Below, in pieces: positions 13,472-52,660 of a DNA stretch of 64,000 nucleotides. Source of the stretch: a virus; the IMG/VR virus record IMGVR_UViG_3300031992_004571; one strand, given 5' to 3'. Made by a program: the position numbers and the translations under genes. Position 1 is the stretch's first letter; each line of letters opens with the position of its first letter. The notes under the pieces were generated by a model. It did no database searches. It was not told the origin of the DNA and saw only the letters and a program-made list of their open reading frames with translations.

Positions 13472-13665
13472 TTGCCATTTTCCTTGCAAAGGTAGGGAGG
13501 CCCGTAGCCATGCCAAGTACCAGTCGCACACTCCCTATTTCAGAAAAATTTGGTAAAGCCCCAGGGCATTTTCTTTTGGCACAAGACACAAAACAAAATC
13601 AAAATTTTACCGAAATTCCTTGGCGAAGGCCACTCTTTAGCCTCTCTCAAAAAACGGCAAGTAAA
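13472..13665 (+). repeat. R1 conserved noncoding module, copy A (5'-truncated), upstream of dnaN
   Basis: Matches the core ttccttgcaaaggtagggagg(c/t)cgtagccatgccaagtaccagtcgcacactccctatttcagaaaaattt... of copies B, C and D with a few substitutions. Confidence 0.8.
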
Positions 13666-13772
13666 AAGGCATACGGATGACGGATATACTCGATGTTCAA
13701 AAAAAAGATCTCACGGACACAATGAAAAGTGAATAAAATAAAAGGCACGGAATCTGGAAACCCGATATTCCT

Positions 13773-13819
13773 GAACGCAATAAACGCAAAGAACGCAATA
13801 AACGCAAAGAACGCAATAA
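13773..13819. repeat. Tandem 9-bp iteron-like repeat (gaacgcaat/aaacgcaaa, about 5 units) ~50 bp upstream of dnaN
   Basis: Direct reading: gaacgcaataaacgcaaagaacgcaataaacgcaaagaacgcaataa. Confidence 0.85.
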
Positions 13820-13862
13820 CAAACATAATTTTTCATTAGAGGTTGCGCACGACACGGAATAA

Positions 13863-15005
13863 GTGCATACAACTATGACATTTACAGTTTCAAACAAGAC
13901 CCTCGGTGACGCTCTGAACCTTCTCATTAAGGTGGTAAGTTCAAAGAACGTACTCCCCATCCTCGACAACTTCATCTTCTCGGTGAAGGGTGAAGAACTG
14001 ACACTGACAGCAGCAGACACAGAGAACATGATGACTGCCCGCATCAGCCTCACGGATGCCAGTGGAGAGGGTGACTTCGCCGTCAACGCCAAGAGCATGA
14101 TGGATGCAGTGAAGAATATCGCTGACATCCCCCTGACCTTCACCTTTGAAGAGGACAACAACAGCGTGAAGGTGGCATACCAGAATGGCATGTTTACCCT
14201 GCCGACGGATAACACCAACGAGTTTCCGAATATCGGTGACATCAAGGCAGATGCTCTGACCTTCGACATCCCAGAGAATATCCTACAGGAGAATATAGCA
14301 CGTACCGTTTTCGCAACGGCACAAGACGAACTGAGACCCGTGATGAACGGCATCTTCTTCGACCTCACAGCAGAGAGTCTGAACATCGTAGCATCAGACG
14401 GCCATCAACTGGTACGTAACAAGATACTCAACATCAAGGGTGAGGACACGAACATTGGTTCCTTCATCCTGCCGAAGAAACCGGCCCATATCCTCAAGAA
14501 CACACTCCGTAAGACGGACGGCACCGTCAGCATTAAAGCCGACGACCAGAGGGTAGAGGTGGTGACAGAGACATTCACACTCAACTGCCGACTCATTGAG
14601 GGACGCTACCCAAACTATAATAGCGTCATCCCCAAGAGTAACCCGAACATCCTCATAGCAGACAGAATGAGCCTGATCGGTGCGCTGAAGCGTATCAACC
14701 CCTTCGCCAACACAAGCAGCTGCCTCGTGAGGGTACACGTAGAGCCTGGCACCCTGCAACTCGAAGCCGAGGATTACGACTTCTCGAAGATGGCAACGGA
14801 ACGGATGGCATGTGAGTATGAGGGTGCTACCTTCACTATCGGTTTCAAAGGATCTTCATTCATAGAGATTCTTGACAACATCAAGAGCGCAGAGATACAG
14901 ATGCAACTGGCAGACCCCAGCCGCGCAGCTCTCATCCTTCCTGCAGAGCAGACGGAAGAGCAGGAGATACTGATGCTCCAGATGCCGATGCTTATCAACG
15001 ACTGA
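13863..15005 (+). CDS. dnaN: DNA polymerase III beta sliding clamp (DnaN) homolog
   Basis: 380 aa. The MTFTVSNKTLGDALNLL start resembles DnaN MKFTV... The three-domain length matches. Probable true ATG at 13875. Confidence 0.7.
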   Translation: MHTTMTFTVSNKTLGDALNLLIKVVSSKNVLPILDNFIFSVKGEELTLTAADTENMMTARISLTDASGEGDFAVNAKSMMDAVKNIADIPLTFTFEEDNNSVKVAYQNGMFTLPTDNTNEFPNIGDIKADALTFDIPENILQENIARTVFATAQDELRPVMNGIFFDLTAESLNIVASDGHQLVRNKILNIKGEDTNIGSFILPKKPAHILKNTLRKTDGTVSIKADDQRVEVVTETFTLNCRLIEGRYPNYNSVIPKSNPNILIADRMSLIGALKRINPFANTSSCLVRVHVEPGTLQLEAEDYDFSKMATERMACEYEGATFTIGFKGSSFIEILDNIKSAEIQMQLADPSRAALILPAEQTEEQEILMLQMPMLIND

Positions 15006-15075
15006 TAATGTACTCCAGTGTACCAGAGTGTACTTCACTGAACTACACTGAATTTTCTTTTGTTCATACGATCCG

Positions 15076-15103
15076 AAAGTCCTGCCTGTGAAGGTGGGAC
15101 TTT
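15076..15103 (+). terminator. Weak hairpin downstream of dnaN (7-bp stem, no clear U-tract)
   Basis: aaagtcc-tgcctgtgaaggtg-ggacttt. Confidence 0.2.
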
Positions 15104-15185
15104 CCCATGATAACAATTAACATCATTTTAACAATTTCCGTTCCAAAAATGGCAATTTCTGTGCTATTTACGGCAAGAAACGGTC

Positions 15186-15250
15186 TATTTCTGGAAATAA
15201 ATGTACCATTCTTGGAATTATTCTTGGAAATGTTGGAAATCTTGGAAATT
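15186..15250. repeat. Cluster of five TGGAA(A/T)T repeats, partly palindromic (atttctggaaat)
   Basis: atttctggaaataaatgtaccattcttggaattattcttggaaatgttggaaatcttggaaattt. Confidence 0.8.
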
Positions 15251-15299
15251 TCCTCGCGGCGGGATGCTCCCTACAGTCGCATCCCCGGCCAAACCGTTC

Positions 15300-16264
15300 A
15301 GCTTTGACCGTAACAAGGTAGCCGGTGGCTGACTCTCTTCAAACGCATCCGCTATCCGTGCTGAAAAACTATTATCCGTTTCCGTTATCCGTACCCTTAC
15401 GGACTATCCGTGGTGATAATCCGTGCCTGGGCCACTACGTGGAAAGGTAATCCAGAAGCATGTCCGTGTCACTCTAAGGCAATCCGTACTGCCGCTATTA
15501 GTCCCACTCTGGGCAGCATGGCATACCAATGTCGAACTCATTCAGAGGCGAACAATGTTCTGCTTCACCAGTATCGACGTTGGTGTGCTACATGCTTTGG
15601 TCGCCGGACATGATGGCAACGGTACGGATCTGTATCGCCACACAGACGAATGACAACAGGGGCGATGGCGTGCCTCGCGGACAGAACACCCGCAGGAAGG
15701 CGACTTAACGGACGGCGTGATGCTAAGATTTGTGCCAGAGAGGTGCTGCACTATGTCGATGGGTGCAACCAGTTACCACCTATCGCCATTTCCCGACGGC
15801 ATACTGCTGTCAGAAACCCCTTGCACGTCACCGCCGCAAATCCACATCCCTGCACGTTCCTATCACTTTCCTCCAGGTGTCCATGCCATGAGTCACTGAT
15901 GCCACCACACCCCTAACGTCATTCCCGCATAGTACGGGAACACAAGGCACCACATACTATGCCGCTTCCTCCGAGACGGTTTTCAACTAACTTCGTTAAA
16001 CACTTTTCTACCTTTGTACTTACATTTCCATCATTCAATTCAAGAAACACCAATAACAGCCCCATCACCATTCGTCCATCTGATAAGACCTTATTGTTCT
16101 CCCTGTTAGTGCAAGCATTAACCTGGAGTACACCCGGACACATCATCTGGAAGTCGGGCGATAACAAAACTTCCGTCGGGAACAGAAGCATAGTTATCGT
16201 GCCGATGGCACAAGCCCGTCTGGCGAATGGATCTTTGGACTGTATTAAATATTCAAATCAGGGT
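15300..16264. other. GC-rich (~52%) ~1 kb segment with no ORF over 90 aa. Either a decayed gene or a structured ncRNA.
   Basis: Six-frame track shows only short overlapping ORFs. Composition differs from the flanks. Confidence 0.4.
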
Positions 16265-16550
16265 GCTTCGCAATACCATTCCAATCCTATTTCCTTAATC
16301 CTACGCCCACACCAAAGAGTATGTTTCATCCTGGCACAGAACCTTCTCATACTCAGCAGCAGAGCCGCAGGGTAGGATAAGGCACTGTTTACAGGAACAT
16401 GGGCGATGACAGACGCTTTCAATTCCTTAGACAAACCACTGGCAATCTCCGACAAGGCTCCGAAGCATCAGCAGTTTGTCTCTTCCTTGAAAACGACACT
16501 CATCCTAATGCCCATGTGGTGAAACATCACTCTTTCCCAACCCCCAAAAA
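16265..16550 (+). repeat. R2 conserved noncoding module, copy 1
   Basis: About 286 bp, colinear with 51575-51860. Conserved core gtttcatcctg.cacagaaccttctcatactcagcagcagagccgcagggtaggataaggcactgtttacaggaacatggg.gatgacag with a variable middle. Confidence 0.8.
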
Positions 16551-16584
16551 TCCGAACTTCCAGATAATTTTATACCTCCATTGT

Positions 16585-16615
16585 ACCAAATACCGCCTAT
16601 TTGGTACTTTTTAAT
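16585..16615 (+). terminator. Rho-independent terminator-like hairpin following R2 copy 1
   Basis: taccaaata-ccgcc-tatttggta followed by ctttttaatt. Confidence 0.5.
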
Positions 16616-16790
16616 TATTTCATAGAATAAACAAAAAAACGCATTTTTCCACATCGATGCGTTAATAATCGTTTTTTCTCCACGGAGTAGTAAAAACTCA
16701 ATGATAAATGGTGGAACAAAAAATGCAAACTTGAACAAAACATGAAGGTCTCATCAATGTCAGGTTATGTGGGTGTTTTTCACCCTAAAC

Positions 16791-17180
16791 GGTTCATTCC
16801 GCTTACGCGACGCCGTTTTCCTTGCAAAGGTAGGGAGGCTCGTAGCCATGCCAAGTACCAGTCGCACACTCCCTATTTCAGAAAAATTTTGTAAAGCCAG
16901 GGCATTTTCTTTTGGCACAAGGCACAAAACAAAATCAAAATTTTATCCGAAATTCCTTGGCGAAGGCTACTCTTTAGCCTCTCTCTTTTAATGGCAAGAA
17001 AAAGGCTATAAGCGAAACGAAGTCGATGACGACTAAAAAACATTAAACATAACTGCTGACTTGATGAGAGAATCAAGATAAGAAAAAGGCAAAGCTCACT
17101 CAGCCGATAACTCTCAAACAGCAGCACACAACAACAAACAAACACCGAAGGCGACGGAATAGAAAAAGCCAACAAACAGT
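16791..17180 (+). repeat. R1 conserved noncoding module, copy B (core plus 3' extension ending at the ATG of the next gene)
   Basis: Core is identical to copy D over ~165 bp apart from one substitution (ctcttta vs ctcctta). Extension gctgacttgatgagagaatcaag...agctcactcagccgataactc...caccgaaggcgacggaata is shared with D and C. Confidence 0.85.
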
Positions 17181-17435
17181 ATGAACGTAAATATTAAGTA
17201 CATCTTCGAGTGCAAGGACGGTTTCAAGTTCGAGCGTGAGACTCCAGAAGAGATTATCCGTATCATGCAGGAGAACTACGATGCGCTGAAGAAGATAGCA
17301 ACAGGCAACGGAGATTTCTGTAACTACTTCATTGATGCTTCCAACGAGTATTTCCCCAAGGGTACAATATGCACCAGCATAGACGGTACTTATAGAGTCT
17401 ATACATTGAGAACGGAGATAACTCAAATAAAGTAA
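17181..17435 (+). CDS. Hypothetical small protein (84 aa), first gene after R1-B
   Basis: ORF immediately 3' of R1. No recognisable motif. Confidence 0.45.
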   Translation: MNVNIKYIFECKDGFKFERETPEEIIRIMQENYDALKKIATGNGDFCNYFIDASNEYFPKGTICTSIDGTYRVYTLRTEITQIK

Positions 17436-17456
17436 TATTGTAAGTAATATTGTAAT
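17432..17456. promoter_or_regulatory. TTGTAATATT direct-repeat motif (reverse orientation of ATTACAATATTACAA)
   Basis: gtaatattgtaagtaatattgtaat. Related sites at 689-703, 46877-46898 and 49136-49150. Confidence 0.4.
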
Positions 17457-17487
17457 AAAACAATAATAACATATAAACATAAGTATT

Positions 17488-17880
17488 ATGGGTAATATCA
17501 CAATCATCCCGAAGCATGTGGACTTCTCACAGAAGATGAAGGAACTCCACCTGGCAATGTGTAAAGAGATTGCCTTTGTTATGGCAGCGACAGGAACGAA
17601 AGAACTGGATCTGCTTGGTACTGATACATGTCACGTCACCATCAAGATGGAACATAAGTTCACTGGAGAGACGGTAGATATTGAGGTGAAAAATGTAATC
17701 CTCAAAAACGACAACTTTTCTGAGGTTAACTTCGGAGAGGTCTATGTCACCTCACCTGACTGGAATTTCTGCGAGGATGAAATCTGTATCAGTAAAAACC
17801 AATACGTCATCCCTTGCAGCATCGAGGAACTGTATGAGGCAGTCTTTGAAAAATGTGACACCAACAGGGAAAAAAAGTAA
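17488..17880 (+). CDS. Hypothetical protein (130 aa)
   Basis: ORF in a co-directional array. Confidence 0.45.
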   Translation: MGNITIIPKHVDFSQKMKELHLAMCKEIAFVMAATGTKELDLLGTDTCHVTIKMEHKFTGETVDIEVKNVILKNDNFSEVNFGEVYVTSPDWNFCEDEICISKNQYVIPCSIEELYEAVFEKCDTNREKK

Positions 17881-17928
17881 GAAGGTAACGGGAGGTCTAA
17901 CCAGCCTCCCACCAAATAAATAATTGTA

Positions 17929-18777
17929 ATGAATACCCAGACCGACAAAAACAGAAACTACAAGTACCAGGGCGATAACCCTATAGTAACAGGAGAAAAG
18001 GGAAAGTTCCGCTGTTACTATATCAATCACGATGACAAGGCCGTGAGCCGGGTACTCGAACTGGAACAACTGAACCATCCGATACTCACCGAAGCGGGAG
18101 TAAAGGCATGGATGGAGCGTGATATGGACTGTTACAACCAGAGGTATGGAATAATTTACATCCAACTGACTGATAAGATCTGCTACCGCCCGATAAGGAC
18201 TGTATGTGATGCAACAACACTGGATATCTTAGACGGCCAGACCGTTAAAGGATGGTATGACGGTTATGCCGAGGACTGTGAAAAGAACCTCAATAAGATG
18301 TTTACAATGATTGCCGCCATCCCCAAGGCACAAATGAAAGGTGAATACTATCCTAATAAGGCCGTCATCGATGCCTATCTGGCAGCGGGTATGATAAACG
18401 AGGCAGGGCAGCTCAGTGAACACCGTAATGCCATTATCGCACAGCGCGAAGCCGAGGAAAACCGCCGCCGCCAAGAGACAGAAGAGCGTGAACGTAAAGC
18501 CAAGGAGGAAGAGGCAGCGGAGATAGCACGGCAGATTGCTGAAGAAGAAGAGTCCCTGCGCACCAAAGGGCATATCACTGGATGGGGAGTAGTACAACTG
18601 TGTGACCGTGAAGGTATCAACATACACCTTCGCACACGTCACAATCTTCTGGAGGTAATAACCTATTTCGAGGGTGGAGCAGCACACTACAGATATTACG
18701 GCAAGAGAAAGCCAAATCTGGACGGTTGTTTCAACACCCTTCGGGAACTGAAAAACAAATTAGGAATAGCAGCGTGA
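17929..18777 (+). CDS. Hypothetical protein (282 aa) with a central E/R-rich coiled-coil
   Basis: Segment REAEENRRRQETEERERKAKEEEAAEIARQIAEEEE. Confidence 0.5.
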   Translation: MNTQTDKNRNYKYQGDNPIVTGEKGKFRCYYINHDDKAVSRVLELEQLNHPILTEAGVKAWMERDMDCYNQRYGIIYIQLTDKICYRPIRTVCDATTLDILDGQTVKGWYDGYAEDCEKNLNKMFTMIAAIPKAQMKGEYYPNKAVIDAYLAAGMINEAGQLSEHRNAIIAQREAEENRRRQETEERERKAKEEEAAEIARQIAEEEESLRTKGHITGWGVVQLCDREGINIHLRTRHNLLEVITYFEGGAAHYRYYGKRKPNLDGCFNTLRELKNKLGIAA

Positions 18778-18778
18778 T

Positions 18779-19027
18779 ATGGTTATCATCAACGGACATA
18801 CTTTCTACGAGGAACCTGGTTGTTGTGGCACATGCCCCTTCCTCATGACCGGCAACACCGACGTGCCAGGGATAGGGCATACCGCACAACGGGGTCTCTG
18901 TATCCAATGGAACGAGGAACACCATACTTGGGCGCATATCCCCAGACGGTGTGCCAAACTCTTCAAGAGAGCATTCCAACTTTATGACAACAGCGGACAA
19001 GAATTAGTAATAACCTCTAAAGAATAG
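18779..19027 (+). CDS. Hypothetical Cys/His-rich small protein (82 aa)
   Basis: Motif CCGTCPF...H...HH...C. Start overlaps the previous stop. Confidence 0.4.
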   Translation: MVIINGHTFYEEPGCCGTCPFLMTGNTDVPGIGHTAQRGLCIQWNEEHHTWAHIPRRCAKLFKRAFQLYDNSGQELVITSKE

Positions 19028-19032
19028 AAAAG

Positions 19033-19200
19033 ATGAAAATAAAGGTATTTTTGGCTATTACGATTTTCAATGGTAAAGCCGAAGCAAATCAGATTTCAGA
19101 GAAATACTTCAATGATTTCAACTGGAGATTGAAGATGCAGGAGAAAGCTAATGAAGGCGAGTATCAGATTTATTTTACTGAAACGGAAATAACTAAATAA
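19033..19200 (+). CDS. Small ORF (55 aa), not in track
   Basis: ATG at 19033 and TAA at 19198 fill the gap in the gene array. Protein MKIKVFLAITIFNGKAEANQ... Confidence 0.3.
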   Translation: MKIKVFLAITIFNGKAEANQISEKYFNDFNWRLKMQEKANEGEYQIYFTETEITK

Positions 19201-19208
19201 CAAAAGGT

Positions 19209-19532
19209 ATGAAAACAATTATCTGCAAGTTCAAGTCCGATGGTAAGGACATTAAAAAGACGGCTATCCTCGGTGACTGTCTTCTCTTCCTCTCGAAGTC
19301 TAAGAAGAACGAGGCTACAGACATCCTGCAGCCGGAAGAGTTAGATAACGAAAACGCATGGGCGATTTTCTTTGCAGTCACAGAAACACTCGGCTATGAA
19401 GTGCAATTCGAGTATGACCGCGAAGTAAACAGACAGACCTTCAAACCGATCAAGGCCATCACCTGGGACGGCTCAGAGCCGGACAAGGTGACTATAACGG
19501 ATGTTCAGAATGTTACAGTAACAGTCAAGTAA
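19209..19532 (+). CDS. Hypothetical protein (107 aa)
   Basis: ORF in the array. Confidence 0.45.
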   Translation: MKTIICKFKSDGKDIKKTAILGDCLLFLSKSKKNEATDILQPEELDNENAWAIFFAVTETLGYEVQFEYDREVNRQTFKPIKAITWDGSEPDKVTITDVQNVTVTVK

Positions 19533-19537
19533 AACCT

Positions 19538-20083
19538 ATGAGAACGAGCAAAGAAGAATGGGGGAGTTGGACTGACCGCTCCCTTTCATGGGACAGACAG
19601 AAGGAAATATCCCTTTCCTTCAAGGAGGGTACGACACCAGAACAGATGGTGATAGCCGCCATCGGGATAGCAAAGAGATATAACTGCAATATCCTAAAGC
19701 CTGTTGAATATACCTATGATGAGAGCAAGGCAGATCCTCACAAAATCGCCTTTACGGTGGAATGCCATAAGTTCACGTATAAATACTTCTATGAGGACGG
19801 CATCGGGCAACACCATAACAGCGAGACGGTGACGGAAAAGGATATCGCCAGATACAAGGAGCGTTTCGGTACCGACAAGTGCATCCACAGGGATTTCAAG
19901 AAGAAATTCTGGTACTCCAGTAACTGGAACGGTGAGACACGTGAGTTTCATTCGCTTAAGAAAGCCAAGGAGGCAGCAGCGAAAGAGATAGGGATGACAG
20001 TCTGGATCTACACCAACTTCCCATACGGCAGACCGTCAGAGATAGTATTTAAAGCCGAAGCATCAGGGATTACGCCTCCCTGA
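19538..20083 (+). CDS. Hypothetical protein (181 aa)
   Basis: Last ORF of array 1, convergent with the minus-strand block. Confidence 0.45.
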   Translation: MRTSKEEWGSWTDRSLSWDRQKEISLSFKEGTTPEQMVIAAIGIAKRYNCNILKPVEYTYDESKADPHKIAFTVECHKFTYKYFYEDGIGQHHNSETVTEKDIARYKERFGTDKCIHRDFKKKFWYSSNWNGETREFHSLKKAKEAAAKEIGMTVWIYTNFPYGRPSEIVFKAEASGITPP

Positions 20084-20383
20084 TGCTTTTGACTCTCTAC
20101 GTGCCTCCCTTATCAGCCGTCTCATGGCACACCGGGCAAAATGCTTGTTGCCCCGGCCTTTCTTATAATAGCGGTAGTGCCATTTCGACATTCCTCTCCA
20201 GAGTTGGTAATACGAACACCGTTCACTCCACGGCTTTCCAAAAACCGCAAAGCGAAGGTTTGCCAGGGATGGTGAAATATCCCTGTCCCAGAGCGTCCAA
20301 AAAACGACGAAAAACACACTGACGGCAATAAAGCCTATTATCACCCACACCACAACACCTGTGTAATAGAACAAACTACTCAT
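20063..20383 (-). CDS. Small membrane protein (start at internal Met)
   Basis: cat at 20381-20383. Protein MSSLFYYTGVVVWVIIGFIAVSVFFVVFWTL. The longer track ORF would overlap the upstream gene by 98 nt. Confidence 0.4.
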   Translation of the reverse strand: MSSLFYYTGVVVWVIIGFIAVSVFFVVFWTLWDRDISPSLANLRFAVFGKPWSERCSYYQLWRGMSKWHYRYYKKGRGNKHFARCAMRRLIREARRESKASGRRNP

Positions 20384-27167: not shown

Positions 27168-27645
27168 AACAGGTGTTATTTAAGAGTAAACAATCATTGT
27201 TAGTAGTTTCTTCCGAAATAATTCGGGTTTCTTCCGAATTAACTACCGTTTCTTCCGAGGAAACTGTCTGTTTCTTTGGAATATCAAAAAAGTAAGGTAT
27301 AGACTCACTGTCTATCACTCCATCACCAGAGAGAATAAACTTGGATGGGATGGCTACCATACGACGCTGGGTGAAAGCCTCTTTGTCAAGAAGATCATTC
27401 TTTGCCATACGGCGTACAACCATCCCTACCAAGTTAGGGGTAATACCATCATGACGAGACGCAACCTTATGAAGGAAACGACTATCATAAGGCCGCTCAA
27501 AGCCCTCACTCGTAACCTCAAACAAGATGGTTACAATAAGGAAGGCTCCCTTGAAGCCAAACTCCTTCTGGATAGCCTTCACACAGGGGAATGTGTAAAA
27601 ACTACGACTAAGGTGAACTGCTTCGGCTGTTAAAGTCTTACTCAT
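27139..27645 (-). CDS. Second DUF4373-like protein (paralog) with a C-terminal SEET x3 repeat
   Basis: FYTFPCVKAIQKEFGFKGAFLIVTILFEV plus VSSEETVVNSEETRIISEETT. Confidence 0.45.
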   Translation of the reverse strand: MSKTLTAEAVHLSRSFYTFPCVKAIQKEFGFKGAFLIVTILFEVTSEGFERPYDSRFLHKVASRHDGITPNLVGMVVRRMAKNDLLDKEAFTQRRMVAIPSKFILSGDGVIDSESIPYFFDIPKKQTVSSEETVVNSEETRIISEETTNNDCLLLNNTCYGTTKEARS

Positions 27646-42269: not shown

Positions 42270-42608
42270 TTATACACGCGCAGAGATAGGTTGCTCTGCA
42301 CCGAACATAGAGAGTTGCGTCGGTTCTGTGCGCTTGATGATAAGCGGCTGCTCCGCACTCTTATAAATACCACAACGCTTCAGGATTTTCTTAACACCTT
42401 CGCCAGTCAGTCCCTTTGCCTTGGCAATGTTCTGGATAATGCGGTTCGGCTTAACCTGACCGGTCATAATCTCATGAGACCAACCGAGGTAAGTCTTACA
42501 AATTTCTTCGGCTCTGGTCCGGAGAAAAGTCTCATAAGTCGTTTCTAAAGTGTTAATTTTACCCATAAACTTTGTAGTTTGTACTAAATTTCGTATTTTT
42601 GCATCCAA
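42270..42608 (-). CDS. Small putative DNA-binding protein (112 aa), first gene of the long minus-strand block
   Basis: ORF abutting the divergent control region. Confidence 0.35.
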   Translation of the reverse strand: MDAKIRNLVQTTKFMGKINTLETTYETFLRTRAEEICKTYLGWSHEIMTGQVKPNRIIQNIAKAKGLTGEGVKKILKRCGIYKSAEQPLIIKRTEPTQLSMFGAEQPISARV

Positions 42609-45708: not shown

Positions 45709-45728
45709 ACTCTCGTAATCTAAAATAG

Positions 45729-45765
45729 CAGCCCTGACATTCTTACTGTCAGGGCTTTTCCGTTT
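45729..45765 (+). terminator. Rho-independent terminator after int
   Basis: agccctgaca-ttcttac-tgtcagggct followed by tttccgttttc. Confidence 0.6.
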
Positions 45766-46062
45766 TCTGATTGCACTTATATCATATTTTCTTATTTTGT
45801 TGAAAGAAAACTTTGTATTCTTTTTCTGTTTTTCGGGCGCAGTCAAACATAGATTTTCTGTGCTAAGGTAGCGGAAACCGTTCCCGGCAAGGGTCGCATA
45901 ATGCTTGGCTTCGGAAAACTTACAGAGAATTTTGGGTGCAGCAGCTCCGTAATCAAAATTCACAGGAACTTTCCCGGCCATCCCTTGACCTTATGGGACT
46001 ACCTTTCCTACGCTTCAGAATGCACATAAAATTCAAAGTTTAACTTCTAAAAACAGAACGAA

Positions 46063-46758
46063 ATGAATACTTCATCAGTTTCCAACCTTTCAATCAAAAA
46101 CTGGTCAAAAGATGACCAGCCCATTCAAAGAATGCAGTCATTAGGTACTCAAAGCCTTTCTGACGCAGAACTGCTTGCAGTACTAATCGGCAGCGGCACT
46201 AAGGGCCGTTCAGCCGTAGAAATCGCAAGAGACCTTCTCGCGAAGTTCAATAACAGTCTAAACGCCATTGGCAAGGCACGACTGGATGAGATAACATCTG
46301 TTGAAGGCATTGGTCTTACCACCGCCTGCAGAATATCCGCTGCCATTGAAATTGGCAAGCGTAGAACAAAAACTGACGAAACTCCTGACCTCGGTACAGC
46401 AGTCAGAATCTACAATTTTATGCTCCCAATCATGAAAGATCTTGATACTGAAGAATTTCATATCATACTGATGAACCAGAACTTCCACTTTATAAAGCGT
46501 TTACGCATTTCTAAGGGTGGTATCTCTGAAACAGCTGTTGACATCCGTATCATTATACGTGAAGCTGTTCTTAATAACGCTACCATTTTGGCCTGCTGCC
46601 ATAATCATCCCAGTGGTTCTCTCAGACCCAGTAGGGCTGATGAAGAACTAACACGTTCAATCAAAAACGCCTGTCAGCTGATGCGCATCCACTTTTTGGA
46701 TCATGTCATCGTGACGGATGGAGCTTATTACTCCTTCCACGAGGAAGGTAAAATCTAA
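46063..46758 (+). CDS. radC: RadC-like JAB-domain protein
   Basis: N-terminal HhH region (LSDAELLAVLIGSGTKG) and JAB motif HNHPSG. Confidence 0.8.
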   Translation: MNTSSVSNLSIKNWSKDDQPIQRMQSLGTQSLSDAELLAVLIGSGTKGRSAVEIARDLLAKFNNSLNAIGKARLDEITSVEGIGLTTACRISAAIEIGKRRTKTDETPDLGTAVRIYNFMLPIMKDLDTEEFHIILMNQNFHFIKRLRISKGGISETAVDIRIIIREAVLNNATILACCHNHPSGSLRPSRADEELTRSIKNACQLMRIHFLDHVIVTDGAYYSFHEEGKI

Positions 46759-46972: not shown

Positions 46973-47337
46973 GGTTCATTCCGCTTTCTGACGTCTTTCC
47001 CCTTGCAAAGGTAGGGAGGCTCGTAGCCATGCCAAGTATCAGTTGCACACTCCCTATTTCAGAAAAATTTTGTAAAACCCAAGGGCATTTTCTTTTGGCA
47101 CAAGACGCAAAACAAAATCAAAATTTTATCCGAAATTCCTTGGCGAAGGCTACTCTTTAGCCTCTCTTTTTTAATGGCAAGGAAAAGGACTAAAAGCGAA
47201 ACGAAGTCGATGACGACTGAAAATTTATTGAAACAACGGCTGACTTGGAAAGAAAACCTTATGAAAAGGAACTTAGCTCACTCAGCCGATAACTCTCAAA
47301 AACCGAAGCCGACGGAATACAAACAGGCATATATAAA
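46973..47337 (+). repeat. R1 conserved noncoding module, copy C
   Basis: Core shares ~95% identity with B and D, with single-base indels. A shortened 3' extension ends at the ATG at 47338. Confidence 0.85.
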
Positions 47338-47556
47338 ATGAAACAGATGTGGCTACTTATCATTAAAAACCTCAGTAAGAGCGAAGTCTTTGATTTGTTC
47401 TTTGAGGGTCTGGAGTATGAAACCGTAAATGGTGAAATACATATCCAGTATGAGAGAAAGAAATACCTGATGGAAGATCTTAACGGTGCAAAGGCGAGAA
47501 CTTTAAAAGAAATTGCCTATGAGATAGATAAAATACAATTAACTCCAATATGTTAA
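47338..47556 (+). CDS. Hypothetical small protein (72 aa), first gene after R1-C
   Basis: ORF with no recognisable motif. Confidence 0.4.
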   Translation: MKQMWLLIIKNLSKSEVFDLFFEGLEYETVNGEIHIQYERKKYLMEDLNGAKARTLKEIAYEIDKIQLTPIC

Positions 47557-47560
47557 AACT

Positions 47561-47839
47561 ATGATAACAGTCAGTGAAATACAGAAAATTCTCAATGATG
47601 CAGGCATCAGCGGAGAAGTAGAACAAGATTCAATCCCTTTTCTGGTGGCAGTCACAATTTATTGGGGTGACTGGAAACACGACCACGGATATCTAAAATA
47701 CCTCATGCAGCAGCATGGTCTTACCCATGTCAAGGAAGAATTATTGGAAGAAGATGGAAGCGACTGTTATAGTGCCAAACATCTCTTCGGTGAGGATCAT
47801 TTTGTAGAAGGCGCAAGAAAACTCTTTCAACCGGCATAA
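47561..47839 (+). CDS. Hypothetical protein (92 aa)
   Basis: ORF with no recognisable motif. Confidence 0.4.
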   Translation: MITVSEIQKILNDAGISGEVEQDSIPFLVAVTIYWGDWKHDHGYLKYLMQQHGLTHVKEELLEEDGSDCYSAKHLFGEDHFVEGARKLFQPA

Positions 47840-47890
47840 TAACAAGGTAACGGGGAGCCTAACCAACTCCCCATAATATACTCCACAACA

Positions 47891-48196
47891 ATGAAAACTA
47901 TCTATCGAGTAATATTGGCTGTCGATTATAAAGGACATCGCGAACGTGAACAATATTACACAGAAAAAAGAGAGGAAGCGGTAAACCGCTATATCGAAGC
48001 CCAGATAAAAGTGAAACGCTTCGGTGAAGAGAAAGGGCTGAAGGTATATGACATGGTGAATAACAATAACTATATGACTACTTTCGCAGACGGAAACCAA
48101 AAAGGCAAGCCCTATACGGGTGCAATGGCTAAATTTTCTCGTAAAGAATTTGTGAAAGATGACTTCTTGAATTTGGGTAATACACCAATATTCTAA
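47891..48196 (+). CDS. Hypothetical protein (101 aa)
   Basis: ORF with no recognisable motif. Confidence 0.4.
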   Translation: MKTIYRVILAVDYKGHREREQYYTEKREEAVNRYIEAQIKVKRFGEEKGLKVYDMVNNNNYMTTFADGNQKGKPYTGAMAKFSRKEFVKDDFLNLGNTPIF

Positions 48197-48220
48197 CAAT
48201 AACCTAACAGATAGATAAAT

Positions 48221-48433
48221 ATGATAACAACAAAATATATAATGACCGTCCAGATAGGACGTAACGTGACAGATATTATTGCTCTGCCATGTGTGGATAG
48301 TGTGAGAAAATCCTACAAGGGTGTTCTAATCTATCAAGTAAACACTGGCAAGAGCCAACCAGAATATGCAAGGGAAGGTGACCTTATCTGCCAGGATAAT
48401 GATGGTGAATGGCATGTTGAATATAAGCAATAG
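48221..48433 (+). CDS. Hypothetical protein (70 aa)
   Basis: ORF with no recognisable motif. Confidence 0.4.
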   Translation: MITTKYIMTVQIGRNVTDIIALPCVDSVRKSYKGVLIYQVNTGKSQPEYAREGDLICQDNDGEWHVEYKQ

Positions 48434-48440
48434 AATTATG

Positions 48441-49094
48441 GAATATACTAACAGAGGAACAATAATGCACCTCACTCTACATAACTGTACGGTGCAGAAT
48501 AATGGAACCATCATGCACCTTGACGGTGAGGGTAACCATATAAACAACAAAGGGTCTATCATGCACAATGATGGAGGCAGGGTGATAATCATGGGTGCAG
48601 GAACATACCAACAGCAACCGGTGAAAGAAAAGATCGTCTATCAGGACAGAATCGTTTACCGTGACCGCCCTACTCCATCAAAGAAAGATGCACAACGCAT
48701 CAAGAGACTCGAAGAACAGGTTGAAAACCTGAAGGAACAAATCAGAAAATCCACTGAGGCAAGAAATGCTGAACGTCTGGAGAATACAATCAGTTTTTTG
48801 GAAAACGCTAACCGCGAACTGAAAAATAATATTGAAGAACTCAAAGCAGACCTCGAAGCGGCAGATAGAATGAAACTGCTACGGGAAATCGAGGAACTGA
48901 AAGAGAAAGTCCAGAGAGCGAAGAATCGCGAGCGTATCAGCAGGCACCAACAATACGAGAAGGGTTATCAGGCTGGTGTGGTGGATGGAAGTAATAAGAA
49001 AAAAGAAGTGTTTGATTGGGGTGTACACCCCACAAAGGAACAGGCAGAAGCACTTATGAAACAACTCCGAATATGGCTTGATTGTGAGGATTGA
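48441..49094 (+). CDS. Protein with N-terminal G(T/S)IMH(L/N) repeats and a C-terminal coiled-coil
   Basis: Start reassigned to MEYTNRG directly after the upstream stop. Repeats TIMHL x2 and SIMHN. Coiled-coil RIKRLEEQVENLKEQIRK... Confidence 0.45.
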   Translation, partial: EYTNRGTIMHLTLHNCTVQNNGTIMHLDGEGNHINNKGSIMHNDGGRVIIMGAGTYQQQPVKEKIVYQDRIVYRDRPTPSKKDAQRIKRLEEQVENLKEQIRKSTEARNAERLENTISFLENANRELKNNIEELKADLEAADRMKLLREIEELKEKVQRAKNRERISRHQQYEKGYQAGVVDGSNKKKEVFDWGVHPTKEQAEALMKQLRIWLDCED

Positions 49095-49135
49095 CCGATT
49101 AAGAAATAATAAAATATTGAAATATTTATGCTAAT

Positions 49136-49150
49136 ATTACAATATTACAA
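49136..49150. promoter_or_regulatory. Exact ATTACAATATTACAA motif (second copy of the site at 689-703) upstream of a candidate -7 box TATCTTTG
   Basis: Identical 15-mer at two loci. TATCTTTG lies at ~49162-49169. Confidence 0.45.
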
Positions 49151-49195
49151 GAAATATTTGTATCTTTGCAGACGAAAATATGATAATACTGAAAT

Positions 49196-50176
49196 ATGAA
49201 AGATTTCGATTTATATAGTTATGACAGATATATCGTCAGTTTCTCTGGGGGAAAAGACAGTACCGCCCTACTGCTCTTCCTCCTTGATAATGGTGTACCG
49301 GAAGAGAAAATAGAACTCTGGCATCAGGAAATAGACGGACGTGGCCGTAGTCTCTTTGATTGGGAGGTAACACCAGACTATTGCCGAAAGTTGGGTGAAG
49401 CATTTAATATCCCAGTTTACTTTCAATGGAAAGTCGGTGGTTTTGAGCGTGAAATGACTCGCACAGAAAGCCTAACGGCACCAGTCTGTTTTGAACTTCC
49501 TAACGGTTCAATACAACAGACTGGAGGTGACAGGGGTAAACCTTCCACGCGGAATAAGTTCCCACAACCGTCACCAGACCTTCGGGTGCGCTGGTGCAGC
49601 GCATATCTGAAAGTGGATGTATGTGCAACGGCTCTTCGTCATCAAGAGAGATTTCAGAACAGCCGTACTCTGGTATTGTCTGGTGAACGGGGTGAGGAAA
49701 GTAAACAGCGTGCAGGATATGCCATCATTGAACCTGACAGGGCAGATCTGAGGAATGGACGTAACCCCAGATACATTGACCGCTTCCGTCCTATTCGTGA
49801 CTGGAAGGAAAAGCAAATATGGGATATACTGGAGAAATACCGTGTTCGTCCTCATCCATGCTACTTCATGGGGTTCGGACGGTGCTCGTGCAAATTCTGT
49901 GTATTCGGTAACTGTCATCAGTTTGCCTCTGCTGCCTGTGTGAGTCACGACCAGGCCAATGACTTGATAAAGTTTGAGAAAGATTTCGGGTACACGATGA
50001 AACGTGATACAGACCTCGCTTCTCTTATCCGTAAGGGTGTTCCTTATGACTCCATCACGGAAGAATTAAGACAAATTGCCACTTCATACGAATATACTGC
50101 ACCTGTGTTTATCTCTGATAAAGAGACTTGGCAACTTCCTGCAGGAGCCTTCCGTAAATGCGGTGGCCCATCATAA
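49196..50176 (+). CDS. PAPS reductase-family (PP-loop) protein with a C-terminal Cys cluster
   Basis: PP-loop YIVSFSGGKDSTALLL. Cys cluster GFGRCSCKFCVFGNC. Confidence 0.65.
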   Translation: MKDFDLYSYDRYIVSFSGGKDSTALLLFLLDNGVPEEKIELWHQEIDGRGRSLFDWEVTPDYCRKLGEAFNIPVYFQWKVGGFEREMTRTESLTAPVCFELPNGSIQQTGGDRGKPSTRNKFPQPSPDLRVRWCSAYLKVDVCATALRHQERFQNSRTLVLSGERGEESKQRAGYAIIEPDRADLRNGRNPRYIDRFRPIRDWKEKQIWDILEKYRVRPHPCYFMGFGRCSCKFCVFGNCHQFASAACVSHDQANDLIKFEKDFGYTMKRDTDLASLIRKGVPYDSITEELRQIATSYEYTAPVFISDKETWQLPAGAFRKCGGPS

Positions 50177-50196
50177 TAACTTAAACTTTCTATGAT

Positions 50197-50688
50197 ATGG
50201 ATACAATCACAATGCAGACACTTAAACGCCTGGAGGCCACCAAAGGCCAGAAACACCAAACTTCAGCGAAAAAACGCTTGAAGGTGTTCTATGGATGGAG
50301 TAAAATCAATAAGATACAGAAGCGCGAGGCTATTGCCATCGCCTTCGAGAATGAGGAACTGGCGGGTTCCGACTGCCGCCGGTCAAGCAAATCCCTTCAA
50401 AAGGTGATGACTATCTGTTGCGAGAGATGGCAGACGGAAGAGGAAATGAAAGATGCACCCTATCATAATAGGGTATTCACGATGTATAATGTATTTCTCG
50501 ATGATAAGCGTATTGGCGGTAGCCTAAAAAAGGCTCTGGCAGACAACTCAGAGAAAGATAAGAACCATGTAAGTGAAAACGAGAGGAAAAGAATCTCTCA
50601 ATCACTTGAAACTGCCTTTATAGCCGCACATCCCGGCTATCAGGAGCCGACACGGGAATTGGAACTACCGTTTACGCCTGACAAATGA
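50197..50688 (+). CDS. Hypothetical protein (163 aa)
   Basis: ORF with no recognisable motif. Confidence 0.4.
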   Translation: MDTITMQTLKRLEATKGQKHQTSAKKRLKVFYGWSKINKIQKREAIAIAFENEELAGSDCRRSSKSLQKVMTICCERWQTEEEMKDAPYHNRVFTMYNVFLDDKRIGGSLKKALADNSEKDKNHVSENERKRISQSLETAFIAAHPGYQEPTRELELPFTPDK

Positions 50689-50708
50689 CAGACGTAAACG
50701 GCTTTTTT
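50668..50708 (+). terminator. Rho-independent terminator ending array 2
   Basis: ccgtttacg-N16-cgtaaacgg followed by cttttttc. Confidence 0.55.
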
Positions 50709-50774
50709 CAAAATTCCGCGCCGGGCTGCTTCCATAAGGTCGCAGCCCCAGACGACACAAGTATGCGCCGCCTG

Positions 50775-51053
50775 TTACAAGGTTGCCGTACCGGCAGGCT
50801 TTCTTTTCTTTGACAGATTCAGACGTTCCAAAACTTCATCCTTACGGTATTTCCAAATAGCAGACATAAGCCTGCCTTCAGGAGTTTGAAGTTTCTCCAT
50901 TCTTTTGAAATACGCTTCCACCTTTTCAAGGCGATCGTCACGAAAGACATTCTCTGATCTTTGGAACTTAATAGGCCGTCCAATAATACGGCCCTGTTTG
51001 AACTCACACATTGACTGTGCCAGTGTTCTGGCAGAATAACATTTCTTTCTCAT
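50775..51053 (-). CDS. Small basic protein (92 aa from internal Met)
   Basis: MRKKCYSARTLAQ... The N-terminal 17 codons of the track ORF are encoded by a terminator hairpin. Confidence 0.35.
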   Translation of the reverse strand: MRKKCYSARTLAQSMCEFKQGRIIGRPIKFQRSENVFRDDRLEKVEAYFKRMEKLQTPEGRLMSAIWKYRKDEVLERLNLSKKRKPAGTATL

Positions 51054-51082
51054 AATAAAAACCTCCATGATTTTAAATAGGT

Positions 51083-51112
51083 GAAACAAAAAGAAGGGAA
51101 TCAAGCCCCTTC
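51083..51112 (-). terminator. Minus-strand rho-independent terminator
   Basis: On the minus strand: gaaggg-gcttgatt-cccttc followed by tttttgtttc. Confidence 0.5.
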
Positions 51113-51574
51113 TATTTGTATTTTATCCTACTCTCTGCACAAATTGGGCATAGCAACCATACTTTAACATAAATTTAACACTTTTCTAACAAAAAATCAT
51201 ATATCCCTCGCTTCGCAGTGTAATAGGTACACCGCTCATGGCCTCTATTGGTTGAGGGAAAATCCCTGATTACGGGCCTCCGTCGGATGGAACACATCAA
51301 ATTTGCAAAGCGTAGAGTATAACGGTCATCTTTATCGTAAACGCCGTTGGTCTCTGTATGACAAGTATGCAAACATACACATCATACAGTGCTCGCTACT
51401 CCTTCACAAGCTCGGAGGTATCAATCACCGACTAACAATGTTTACGGATGATCATCATACACTCCTTCTTTGCATGATGGTTTCATTACCGATGGTTTCC
51501 CTGATGTAATCCGAGATATTCCACACAACCAGTCCGTGAGCGACTATATACCCAAATTAGAAAAACGTACAAAA

Positions 51575-51860
51575 TGCTTCGCAATACCATTTCTATCCAA
51601 ACTCTTAATCCTATCGCCCAACCAAAAGAGCATGTTTCATCCTGACACAGAACCTTCTCATACTCAGCAGCAGAGCCGCAGGGTAGGATAAGGCACTGTT
51701 TACAGGAACATGGGTGATGACAGTCGGTTTTAATTCCTTTTACTAACAGCGGAGTCACGTCGGCAAGCTCCTGAGAACTCAGCAGTTAGTATTTCCTTAA
51801 AACGGACACTCATCATAATGCCCATGTAGTGAAACATTACTCTTTCCCCACCCTTTTTTA
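51575..51860 (+). repeat. R2 conserved noncoding module, copy 2
   Basis: Colinear with 16265-16550 with a variable middle. Followed at ~52105-52135 by a similar taccaaata...tatatggta hairpin plus T-run. Confidence 0.8.
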
Positions 51861-52272
51861 TCGAATCAACCTGGATCTGATAATAACAACCTTTTTGTTG
51901 ATATAATGATTACCGTCATTAGTCAACTGATGGCGCAAGCGTATCTCACTGATGCCAATGTCATCAGCCGAAAACTTCCGGAAGATGGCAGATACACTAC
52001 CGAAATAATAATTCTTATGCCCATGCAGAAAATGAACATGCACAATTTTGATGCCTTTTGTTTGTTGTTCCATAACAAAATATTTTTGCAAAGATACCAA
52101 ATAACTCTTATATGGTATTATTTTAACCTGCATAAATAAGAATTATTAACCAATACAAACAGTTAAAGACTGACCTATAATCAAATAATTATGTTGTGTG
52201 GTGAGTACCACAAACTTGAACAAAGATGAAATCTCATCTACGTCCTGTGCGTTACGTCTGTTGTCACCGTAA

Positions 52273-52660
52273 AGGTTCATTCCGCTACTTGGTGCCTTTT
52301 TTCCTTGCAAAGGTAGGGAGGCTCGTAGCCATGCCAAGTACCAGTCGCACACTCCCTATTTCAGAAAAATTTTGTAAAGCCAGGGCATTTTCTTTTGGCA
52401 CAAGGCACAAAACAAAATCAAAATTTTATCCGAAATTCCTTGGCGAAGGCTACTCCTTAGCCTCTCTTTTATAATGGCAAGAAAAAGAGGCGATAGCGAA
52501 ACGAAGTCGATGACGACTGACAACAAAAAGACATAACGGCTGACTTGATGAGAGAATCAAGAAAAGAAAAAAGGTTCAGCTCACTCAGCCGATAACTCGT
52601 AAATTAACAACAGTACAAACAAACACCGAAGGCGACGGAATATAAAAAGCCACAAACAGT
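52273..52660 (+). repeat. R1 conserved noncoding module, copy D
   Basis: Core identical to copy B apart from one substitution (ctcttta vs ctcctta) over ~165 bp. 3' extension conserved and ends at the ATG at 52661. Confidence 0.85.

Follow-up and report, generated by a model that had tools for sequence, protein, structure and literature searches.

R1, a non-coding repeat found in the 64,000-nt stretch of DNA analysed here (the window), is best read as a single-stranded DNA promoter module suited to the primary sigma factor of Bacteroidetes, analogous in function, though not homologous, to the enterobacterial Frpo/ssi elements. Judging from sequence, we give this reading a probability of roughly 0.6. 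It is ahead because the reverse complement of the R1 5' arm is a canonical -33/-7 promoter that would serve the downstream genes only in a minus-strand hairpin. In duplex DNA the motif points away from the gene arrays; in the minus-strand hairpin it points into them, with the -33 element paired and the -7 box bulged. Because it faces its genes only as folded single-stranded DNA, R1 looks like the Bacteroidota counterpart of the F single-strand promoter. A sequence-only reading of the window had offered two explanations, a single-strand promoter and a structured leader or non-coding RNA; the first now appears better supported and the second is its main rival.

A co-oriented hairpin family ahead of gene arrays

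A repeat search recovered R1 as one four-copy direct-repeat family on the plus strand, and nhmmer and a covariance model each returned exactly four plus-strand copies (Table 1), in agreement with the sequence-only reading, which had placed each copy 5' of a plus-strand array. The ~170-nt core is nearly invariant across all four copies in a gapped alignment, and the near-identity reported for copies B and D amounts to 98% in an ungapped comparison of 189 nt. No reading frame through R1 survives the small indels in A and C, which bears out the earlier argument against coding. A 3' extension of ~190 nt, reaching the ATGs at 17181, 47338 and 52661, is common to copies B, C and D; copy A, which precedes dnaN as stated, lacks both this conserved leader and the upstream piece. 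The flanking genes had been called unrelated, which needs partial correction: B, C and D share a semi-conserved upstream piece of ~50-80 nt, and B and D a further conserved non-coding block of ~285 nt, 270-450 nt upstream. The leader is highly conserved, with a small covarying stem adjoining the ATG. This conservation suggests a function at the RNA level and counts against the preferred reading, under which the leader is predicted to be the 5' UTR of a hairpin-initiated transcript.

Table 1 Coordinates of R1 copies and associated features in the window
Feature	Position	Strand	Basis or remark
R1 copy A, long imperfect hairpin	13478..13666	proposed folding strand (-)	repeat search, fold, covariance model (157.5 bits)
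R1 copy B, long imperfect hairpin	16816..17003 (repeat search 16816-17004)	(-)	repeat search, fold, covariance model
R1 copy C, long imperfect hairpin	46997..47188 (repeat search 46999-47187)	(-)	repeat search, alignment, covariance model
R1 copy D, long imperfect hairpin with 98% identity to B	52299..52486 (repeat search 52299-52487)	(-)	repeat search, fold, covariance model
TTG-N19-TACCTTTG motif, copy A	13487..13516	(-)	motif search
TTG-N19-TACCTTTG motif, copy B	16825..16854	(-)	motif search
TTG-N19-TACCTTTG motif, copy C	47006..47035	(-)	motif search
TTG-N19-TACCTTTG motif, copy D	52308..52337	(-)	motif search
Conserved leader, copy B	17004..17180	(+)	alignment; hairpin base to ATG
Conserved leader, copy C	47189..47337	(+)	alignment
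Conserved leader, copy D	52487..52660	(+)	alignment
Upstream piece, copy B	16735..16815	(+)	small CACC..GGT stem and T-rich tract
Upstream piece, copy D	52215..52298	(+)	semi-conserved
dnaN (sliding clamp), first gene past copy A	13875..15005	(+)	
Array of 8 small ORFs behind copy B	17181..20322	(+)	putative products without assigned function
Array behind copy C	47338..50688	(+)	
Array behind copy D, including SSB gene 53197-53631	52661..54226	(+)	Pfam SSB 5.4e-07

The sequence-only reading had described a core packed with short hairpins. Folding gives instead one imperfect inverted repeat of ~190 nt that pairs end to end. With a hand-defined model of 39 pairs, 89.9% of positions were paired in 34 relative sequences, compared with 35-60% when partners were slid, and both sides had changed in 16 of the 39 pairs. 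A covariance-model alignment that includes a third R1 subtype raised these figures to 90.6% and 26 pairs. The independent test set consisted of 52 distinct IMG/VR copies, none used in building the model; here pairing reached 86.7% (36-50% slid), both sides had changed in 33 of 39 pairs, and the covariation score was 0.473 versus at most 0.103. The hairpin arms are kept by compensatory evolution. Covariation had been proposed as a check, and it is strong in both sets.

R1 resides in Bacteroidales ICEs and MobV mobilizable elements, with up to nine copies and co-orientation in every multi-copy contig. Spacing between R1 and the downstream ATG is tightly held (22-77 nt; 150-190 nt where a leader is present), whereas that from the upstream stop codon is loose and variable (139-279 nt); in the short-leader subtype the ATG lies ~40 nt past the stem base, a normal promoter-to-ATG distance. 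An SSB gene sits directly behind R1 in seven loci and in B. finegoldii, and dnaN does so in the window and in locus L044. The window's element encodes a primase-like protein besides its clamp and SSB. In 6/6 lineages R1 points the same way as the MobV relaxase gene, one lineage being represented by an element shared at 96-97% identity among Bacteroides, Phocaeicola and Parabacteroides, and in relatives the SSB-bearing R1 copies lie upstream of the mob operon. A single-strand promoter requires such co-orientation if the relaxase gene lies in the lagging region (PMC11541004), but the arrangement could simply reflect a general strand bias of these elements. Together with SSB and dnaN downstream and the lack of a conventional promoter for the downstream genes, it fits the single-strand promoter. 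Against the preferred reading, neither a relaxase, sought in the window and ~20 kb of flanks, nor the oriT or transferred strand of the window's element was found. A minus-strand gene block also separates the A/B pair from the C/D pair over 30 kb, a layout that is unlike a compact leading region and likewise counts against that reading.

A minus-strand promoter motif and the strand predicted to fold

The invariant columns of the 5' arm, CCAA and TTGCAAA..TA, read TTGG...TAnnTTTGCAA on the minus strand, with a gap-free spacer. These bases form TTG-N17-19-TAnnTTTG, whose two 'n' positions vary freely. By its sequence this is the Bacteroidetes sigma-A -33/-7 promoter, a documented consensus (PMC2483708, PMC7366714). 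The pattern TTG-N19-TANNTTTG occurs five times in the window against 1.04 expected by chance, at the four R1 copies and at one genuine divergent intergenic promoter. Exact minus-strand TAnnTTTG occupied the corresponding position in 40/40 relatives and 48/52 IMG/VR copies, in which nn was CC, AA, AC, TC, TT, AT or GC and spacers measured 17-19 nt. The opposite (3') arm does not carry this motif.

Plus-strand promoters are missing where the arrays begin. In the 40 relatives we found no recurrent plus-strand TAnnTTTG from -300 to +450 around R1, and in the window no conventional -7 box precedes 13875, 17181, 47338 or 52661. Other window genes have such boxes 16-190 nt ahead, among them a PAPS-reductase-like gene within the copy C array (49196-50176; box at 49161). 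B. finegoldii, whose units are parted by intrinsic terminators, agrees with this: plus-strand -7 boxes occur there only at the mob operon.

Folded with DNA parameters, all 40 minus strands examined paired end to end. TTG was wholly paired in 34 of these predicted folds and at least two bases of the -7 box were unpaired in 38, the last G of the box being paired in every case. The minus strand of copy B folded at -34.3 kcal/mol (z -4.57). Minus strands were more stable than plus strands in 33/34, 7/7 and 42/50 copies (82/91 together), and their z-scores were lower in 26/34. Wobble-type cells showed no overall strand asymmetry (45 vs 50 in the A4 alignment, 60 vs 47 in the A7 alignment), so the pair counts are silent on which strand folds.

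We propose that when the element is single-stranded, as the transferred strand in a recipient or as a rolling-circle intermediate, the minus strand would fold into the hairpin, with the promoter-bearing arm as non-template strand and the other arm as template. The -33 element would then be duplex, and the -7 box would lie in a bulged, partly unpaired region and thus be in effect pre-melted. Host RNA polymerase would initiate near the stem base and leave the hairpin along the single-stranded template, producing the conserved leader and mRNA for SSB, DnaN and many small proteins, which we predict to be establishment or anti-defence factors. The hairpin-started RNA could additionally prime complementary-strand synthesis. 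Once the DNA became double-stranded, the hairpin would be lost, the promoter would face the opposite way and the early genes would be off; at copy A the duplex promoter could then drive tra to the left. It counts against the preferred reading that a promoter of perfect consensus should be active in duplex DNA as well, giving leftward transcription.

Alternative readings of R1

R1 could instead work at the RNA level, as a structured plus-sense 5' leader common to the arrays or as an inter-array element, transcribed from a farther-upstream promoter or by read-through, with the minus-strand motif antisense or coincidental; an RNase III-type processing site, put-like processive antitermination or a regulatory leader are candidate roles. 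We regard this as unlikely, yet it accounts for several observations: the plus strand, as RNA, also gives the long hairpin (z -3.62), covariation fits RNA and single-stranded DNA equally, G.U-type cells are as frequent as A.C-type, the leader and its ATG-adjoining stem are conserved, and a plus-strand -7 box at 52081 precedes copy D by ~215 nt. It leaves unexplained why TTG and TA..TTTG are invariant at promoter spacing while nn is free, and why their pairing partners on the opposite arm can drift. The greater stability of the minus strand speaks against it, as do the promoter-like distance of the short-leader ATG and the lack of a recurrent plus-strand promoter within 300 nt upstream in the 40 relatives, which extends to B. 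finegoldii with its terminator-parted units. Rfam gave no match at gathering score in the window or seven relative loci, only chance-level ones at E up to 10, in line with the earlier remark that R1 is not a known RNA family.

Less probable still is a single-strand origin of the sso type, in which the hairpin promoter makes only a short primer RNA and no mRNA. The architecture would be that of the single-strand promoter, since the ssoA/ssoU elements of rolling-circle plasmids and sso1 of ICEBs1 are orientation-specific single-stranded DNA folds with a host RNA polymerase promoter; RNA-polymerase-dependent sso elements are documented, and the fold matters after conjugative entry (PMC4595007). 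The clamp, SSB and primase-like protein of the window's element would also suit a replication role. However, sso elements are usually single-copy and not placed as promoters of protein-coding genes, whereas R1 occurs four to nine times per element, far above what priming calls for. Each copy is locked at a fixed short distance to a downstream ATG on the transcript-encoding strand, and the downstream genes have no other promoters. Priming and mRNA synthesis are compatible roles, as Frpo does both.

We think it very improbable that R1 is an ordinary duplex promoter firing leftward, into tra at copy A and a small minus-strand gene or antisense RNA elsewhere, with the inverted repeat a by-product or operator. 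The consensus is perfect, and copy A is positioned where a tra promoter would be: no other -7 box lies ahead of the minus-strand tra genes (the next minus-strand ORF starts at 13404). A small minus-strand gene is also conserved ~200-250 nt to the left of R1 at copy D and in loci L043, L064 and L024, but a separate -7 box precedes the start of this gene by 16 nt, and most copies have no conserved leftward ORF or terminator. Nor would leftward firing account for the covarying partner arm, which lies 130-180 nt upstream of the promoter, or for fixed spacing to the rightward ATG, and covariation speaks against a protein operator.

A mobile or recombination repeat, whether MITE-like, its terminal inverted repeats being ~45 nt long, or a single-stranded site for cassette shuffling in the manner of attC, is barely credible, because orientation is strictly fixed relative to downstream genes, R1 is tied to the downstream ATG and not the upstream stop, and the arms show covariation, not the conservation that a transposase would demand; the MITE or IS end that had been raised for checking is thus not what we see. 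Inverted-repeat ends, an assembly break within copy B, the fusion of a D-type R1 to a B-type array in locus L055, and the motif-ORF-motif-ORF order in consecutive intergenic regions of B. finegoldii, a pattern noted for integron-like motifs by Weinberg et al. (PMC5737381), had suggested it; we attribute shuffling among R1 arrays to homologous recombination between repeats. Integron attC sites resemble R1 as imperfect inverted repeats that form single-stranded DNA hairpins with extrahelical bases between co-oriented small ORFs. They differ in lying at cassette 3' ends, with R-box cores and little sequence conservation, and in needing IntI, whereas R1 has a conserved promoter motif and apex coupled to a start codon. 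We rejected attC on the ATG and stop-codon distances and on the stem ends TTTTCCTTGC/GCAAGAAAA, which differ from R-box motifs; no IntI-type integrase was identified, the nearby recombinases being only a Bacteroidetes-type tyrosine integrase or serine recombinase.

Relation to Frpo and ssi

The closest likeness of the proposed single-strand promoter is to Frpo1/Frpo2 of F and ssi of ColIb-P9. In these, a long imperfect stem-loop in one strand rebuilds a host sigma promoter, transcription leaves the stem into downstream establishment genes, several near-identical co-oriented copies lie a few kb apart with one before ssb, and the promoter is inactive or mis-oriented in duplex DNA (PMC9849209, PMC11541004); for R1, the corresponding activity is predicted from sequence. 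In F, ~5 kb separates Frpo1 from Frpo2, which share 92% identity, and one of the two lies upstream of ssb (PMC9849209). By covariation and folds, one strand of R1 likewise has a long, stable stem-loop. Its hairpin carries a predicted host primary-sigma promoter on the non-template arm, of sigma-ABfr rather than sigma-70 type, and the unpaired -7 bases correspond to imperfect pairing at the -10-equivalent region. Such imperfect pairing reportedly matters for Frpo, in work of Masai and Arai from 1997 and Nasim et al. from 2004.

R1 departs from Frpo/ssi in its promoter (-33 TTG/-7 TAnnTTTG versus TTGACA/TATAAT), in the ~150-190-nt conserved leader of some copies, in reaching nine copies, one per gene in some elements, and in residing in Bacteroidales ICEs and MobV elements. 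Homology was not apparent: R1 (type 1 or types 2/3) had no blastn match in 72,556 PLSDB plasmids, a set expected to cover the F-like and IncI types, and the sole plasmid matches, with a human-gut relative as query, were Bacteroidales records. If the single-strand promoter reading is true, R1 would switch establishment genes on during the entry of DNA into a recipient.

The repeat and its host element

The window belongs to a Bacteroidales conjugative element whose transfer genes occupy the first ~12.5 kb (Table), with DUF4133 and DUF4138 in the left flank. Further genes encode DnaN, SSB, RadC, a PAPS-reductase-like protein, three DNA methyltransferases, a primase-like protein, a tyrosine integrase and ParA, and Pfam and NCBIfam also identified a topoisomerase. 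The element is integrated, since chromosomal gldL/gldM lie ~5.5 kb past the right end of the window. Among ~70 proteins and both flanks, the same searches recovered TraG, TraJ, TraM, DUF4134 and DUF4138 of the T4SS and no relaxase, and no oriT was found in the window and flanks. Iteron-like direct repeats (GTTTCTTCCGAA units) adjoin the gene for a Lin1244_N-domain protein; together with a primase-like gene and dnaN, these repeats suggest an autonomous replication module inside the element. An odd 311-aa fusion protein, which joins an HTH to sigma-70 region 4 and the C-terminal domain of RNA polymerase alpha (Pfam 5e-20), could recruit or mimic parts of RNA polymerase, and any tie to the promoters described below is pure speculation. 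Beyond traN and several unannotated genes, ~8.5 kb downstream of traM, the left flank encodes a very large polyvalent-type protein of 6493 aa whose domains are helicase, nucleotidyltransferase, MutS_I and LPD23.

A repeat search of the window returned R1 as a four-member direct-repeat family, and nhmmer and a covariance model found exactly these four copies, all on the plus strand. The sequence-only reading had thus placed and described R1 correctly. Gapped alignment revealed a ~170-nt core almost invariant across all four copies (98% identity between B and D over 189 nt) and, in copies B, C and D, a ~190-nt extension, the leader, whose end coincides exactly with the ATGs at 17181, 47338 and 52661. 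The flanks had been called unrelated, which is true in part, but B, C and D also share a semi-conserved ~50-80-nt piece upstream. Folding copy B resolved what had been taken for a set of short hairpins into pieces of one long fold, a single imperfect end-to-end hairpin that can form on either strand.

RadC lies just upstream of copy C, and copies A/B and C/D are 30 kb apart. At two loci on other contigs (L006 and L064), a homologous block of integrase (492 aa), RadC and R1 directly abuts the chromosomal pyruvate phosphate dikinase gene. It is thus possible that the window contains two elements, adjacent or nested, with a border near 44 kb and two R1 copies each. Locus L055 joins a D-type R1 and D-type leader to a B-type array (MNVNIKY...), which points to recombination between R1 copies and reshuffling of arrays. 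An independent assembly, contig L071, ends exactly inside copy B.

Features of the window and of related loci (window coordinates unless a contig or record is named)
Feature	Location	Strand	Remark
Transfer genes	724-12512	-	TraG/VirB4-like ATPase, TraJ, TraM, DUF4134
R1 copy A	13478-13666	+	
R1 copy B	16816-17004	+	
R1 copy C	46999-47187	+	
R1 copy D	52299-52487	+	
R2	16262-16548; 51575-51853		also L001, L009, L010, L048, L055
TAnnTTTG boxes of other genes	21327, 42594, 42683, 49161, 52096, 54884, 56532, 56676	-, +, -, +, -, -, +, +	16-190 nt before gene starts
Divergent intergenic promoter	42572-42601		
Small conserved gene left of copy D	51858-52073	-	PHROG 10608, 1.7e-16; motif KIVHVHFLHGHKNYYFGS
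Operator-like inverted repeat	region 52075-52120		
Inverted-repeat remnant left of copy B	~16590-16615		
Integrase-RadC-R1 block	44230-46758; L006 778-6625; L064		
Iteron-like repeats	26680-27273		
Lin1244_N-domain protein	27139-27645	-	
311-aa fusion protein	31370-32305	-	
Primase-like gene	40133-41251		
6493-aa protein	L071 19770-21239		
D-type R1 and leader on B-type array	L055 1949-2339		
tRNA-Pro(AGG)	L016 403-473; L018 1857-1927; L019 985-1055; L051 3051-3121		
Group II intron	L094 8223-8520	-	IMG/VR contig
MobV mobilizable element	PLSDB NZ_OY725888.1, OY725994.1, NZ_OY725765.1 (L168)		nine R1 copies

A promoter motif on the minus strand

Across 34 aligned sequences (A3), the 5' arm has two blocks of invariant columns, CCAA and TTGCAAA..TA, and the alignment is gap-free between the two. 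Read from the minus strand, they become TTGG-N18-TAnnTTTGCAA, equivalent to TTG-N19-TAnnTTTG, and the consensus of the Bacteroidetes primary sigma factor is TAnnTTTG at -7 with TTTG/TTG near -33 (PMC2483708, PMC7366714). Judged by this consensus, the invariant part of R1 is a promoter on the minus strand. The window contains the full pattern five times versus 1.04 expected by chance: once in each R1 copy and once in a genuine divergent intergenic promoter. Position of the -7 box is identical in 40/40 unique relatives, and the box is exact in 48 of the 52 distinct copies from IMG/VR and differs by one base in the remaining four. It never appears on the opposite arm, and nowhere in the repeat is variation greater than among the bases facing it. 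Its 'n' positions are free to vary (CC, AA, AC, TC, TT, AT, GC) and spacer length is 17, 18 or 19 nt, the same manner in which real promoters vary. A scan for sigma-70-type promoters or terminators yielded nothing meaningful.

In duplex DNA the R1 promoter points leftward, away from the arrays, and genes downstream of R1 have no promoter of their own. Other window genes are preceded by TAnnTTTG boxes (Table), yet in the window no such plus-strand box precedes 13875 (dnaN, following copy A), 17181, 47338 or 52661, and no plus-strand box recurs between -300 and +450 across 40 relatives. With its consensus sequence, the promoter should also be active leftward in duplex DNA. That of copy A provides the only -7 box before the tra genes, and most R1 copies have no conserved leftward ORF. 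A small minus-strand gene does lie ~200-250 nt left of copy D and of R1 in L024, L043 and L064; this gene is preceded by a TATCTTTG box of its own, which an operator-like inverted repeat, ATACCA-N-TTTGGTAT, overlaps. Left of copy B the gene is absent and a remnant of the inverted repeat persists. A second conserved non-coding block of ~285 nt, R2, sits 270-450 nt upstream of copies B and D, where its two versions share 85% identity with a ~100-nt stretch 100% identical and 1-nt indels. Other loci carry R2 in the same orientation as R1; both of its strands have strong predicted structure (z about -4.1), and Rfam has no match for it.

Folding strand and selection on pairing

We consider it probable (roughly 0.58) that R1 works through a single-stranded DNA promoter mechanism. 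With DNA parameters, all 40 minus strands analysed fold end to end. Of these predicted folds, 34/40 pair all of the -33 TTG, 38/40 leave at least two bases of the -7 box unpaired, and every one pairs the final G of the box and the 9-10 bp below. For copy B, the A and C of TACCTTTG, its -7 box, are predicted to be unpaired, with a 5-nt bulge on the template arm. Directly upstream of -33 lies an A+T-rich helix that could act in an UP-element-like manner. In such a minus-strand hairpin the promoter arm would be the non-template strand and its partner arm the template, so that transcription would reach the stem base and exit rightward into the leader and genes. Frpo shares this design, with hairpin arms as non-template and template and transcription running out of the stem (PMC9849209, PMC11541004).

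Evidence that the minus strand is the one that folds is moderate. As DNA, copy B reaches -34.3 kcal/mol on the minus strand (z -4.57) and -29.9 on the plus strand (z -3.17); as RNA, its z-scores are -3.6 for the plus and -3.2 for the minus strand. The minus strand is lower in DNA-parameter energy in 33/34, 7/7 and 42/50 copies, by a mean of 3.7 kcal/mol (1.0 between the strands of dinucleotide shuffles), and its z-score is lower in 26/34. Wobble-type cells in helices 3-4 lean toward the minus strand (20 vs 1) and those in helix 2 toward the plus strand (31 vs 16), leaving totals balanced. The main rival, in which R1 would be a structured plus-sense leader RNA, seems improbable to us. The leader sequence itself is very conserved and contains a single compensatory position.

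Over 39 pairs defined by hand, A3 is 89.9% paired versus 35-60% with 3' partners slid by 1-3 columns; both sides changed in 16 pairs, and the covariation score is 0.225 versus at most 0.098. Adding a third subtype through the covariance model gave 90.6% pairing, with both sides changed in 26/39 pairs. The strongest test came from IMG/VR, where scanning by the apex motif of the commoner subtypes produced 73 full-length model matches. These represent 52 distinct sequences, an independent set because none was used in model building. Here pairing was 86.7% versus 36-50% when slid, both sides changed in 33/39 pairs, the covariation score was 0.473 versus at most 0.103, and all four Watson-Crick types appeared at many hairpin positions. 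The R1 hairpin is under selection. That pairing rather than sequence is kept argues against a protein operator or a transposase-bound terminal repeat; on the basis of orientation, spacing and covariation we reject the operator, MITE and attC readings. A coding role fails, as the earlier reading had held, because small indels in copies A and C exclude a shared frame, and neither strand has a conserved ORF. Nor is R1 a known RNA family, none having been recognised at the outset and Rfam giving no match in the window or relatives.

Relatives and implications for Bacteroidales mobile elements

Exact-word scans matched R1 words to rumen Prevotellaceae/Bacteroidales MAGs and ~40 metagenome contigs, and window-type R1 found no match in phage or plasmid (blastn) or IMG/VR searches. 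The family was reached only by genome and metagenome pattern scans and later by the apex motif. On multi-copy contigs (7 metagenome loci and many IMG/VR loci), copies are always co-oriented. The first ORF begins 150-190 nt past the stem in leader-bearing types and ~40 nt past it in a short-leader subtype, where it is an SSB gene (Pfam 6.5e-11) in seven loci; L044 has the same R1-to-dnaN arrangement as the window. Pfam and PHROGs returned almost nothing for array proteins besides SSB, DnaN and PAPS reductase. In four metagenome loci a tRNA-Pro(AGG), not an ORF, directly follows a cut-down R1 leader. On one IMG/VR contig, ~1.7 kb from an R1 copy, Rfam identifies a group II intron (domains D1-D4, 150 bits).

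PLSDB records from Bacteroides finegoldii, Phocaeicola massiliensis and Parabacteroides distasonis match one IMG/VR contig at 96-97% identity, which implies that the shared element moved between genera very recently. In PLSDB they are typed as non-mobilizable, although a MobV relaxase is annotated. The nine R1 copies of the B. finegoldii locus lie on one strand, each 22-77 nt before a gene (SSB, DUF4313 and LPD11 proteins among them) and 139-279 nt past the stop codon of the gene before, an interval that contains intrinsic terminators. The copies flank a mob operon whose MobV relaxase is encoded on the same strand, and conventional plus-strand -7 boxes occur only at that operon. MobV homologues (33-99% identity) are co-oriented with R1 in six lineages, including two rumen-type loci. 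Relaxase genes typically lie in the lagging region adjoining oriT (PMC11541004); if that applies here, the transferred strand is the template of both the relaxase gene and the R1-preceded genes, as the single-strand promoter model requires. In these strand-biased elements, such co-orientation is a condition that the model needs, not proof of it.

Experimental proof of single-strand promoters comes mainly from enterobacterial plasmids; plasmids of Firmicutes have related origins that depend on RNA polymerase. A large 2024 survey for new ssDNA promoters used sigma-70 consensus boxes, and Bacteroidota are absent from its text; we found no published description of such an element in Bacteroidota. 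By blastn, R1 has no sequence similarity to Frpo/ssi-carrying plasmids. By analogy, it probably resembles Frpo/ssi and the known RNA-polymerase-dependent sso elements (PMC4595007) in action and is not a family member by descent.

A more doubtful possibility is that R1 represents a large, Bacteroidota-wide class of direction-switching promoters, in which one sigma-A promoter fires rightward on folded ssDNA and leftward once duplex. On incoming folded ssDNA it would read rightward into establishment and anti-defence genes. When the complementary strand is made, it would flip leftward, to tra genes, a regulator or an antisense RNA, and ss-to-ds conversion would itself be the developmental switch. 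If this were true, every ORF behind an R1 copy, in Bacteroidales elements of rumen and human gut alike, would count as an immediate-early gene, and some elements would have each gene wired to its own ssDNA promoter.

Bacteroidales are dominant in the gut and rumen, and ICEs and mobilizable elements pass among them at very high rates; to our knowledge, little is understood of how incoming DNA becomes established in them. Since the MobV element is shared by B. finegoldii, P. massiliensis and P. distasonis, cultured hosts exist for direct tests. If R1 works as proposed, the ssDNA-promoter strategy would have arisen independently around a very different sigma factor, and a simple signature of sequence and structure would serve to find early or establishment genes in mobile elements of Bacteroidales, and with them candidates for anti-defence.
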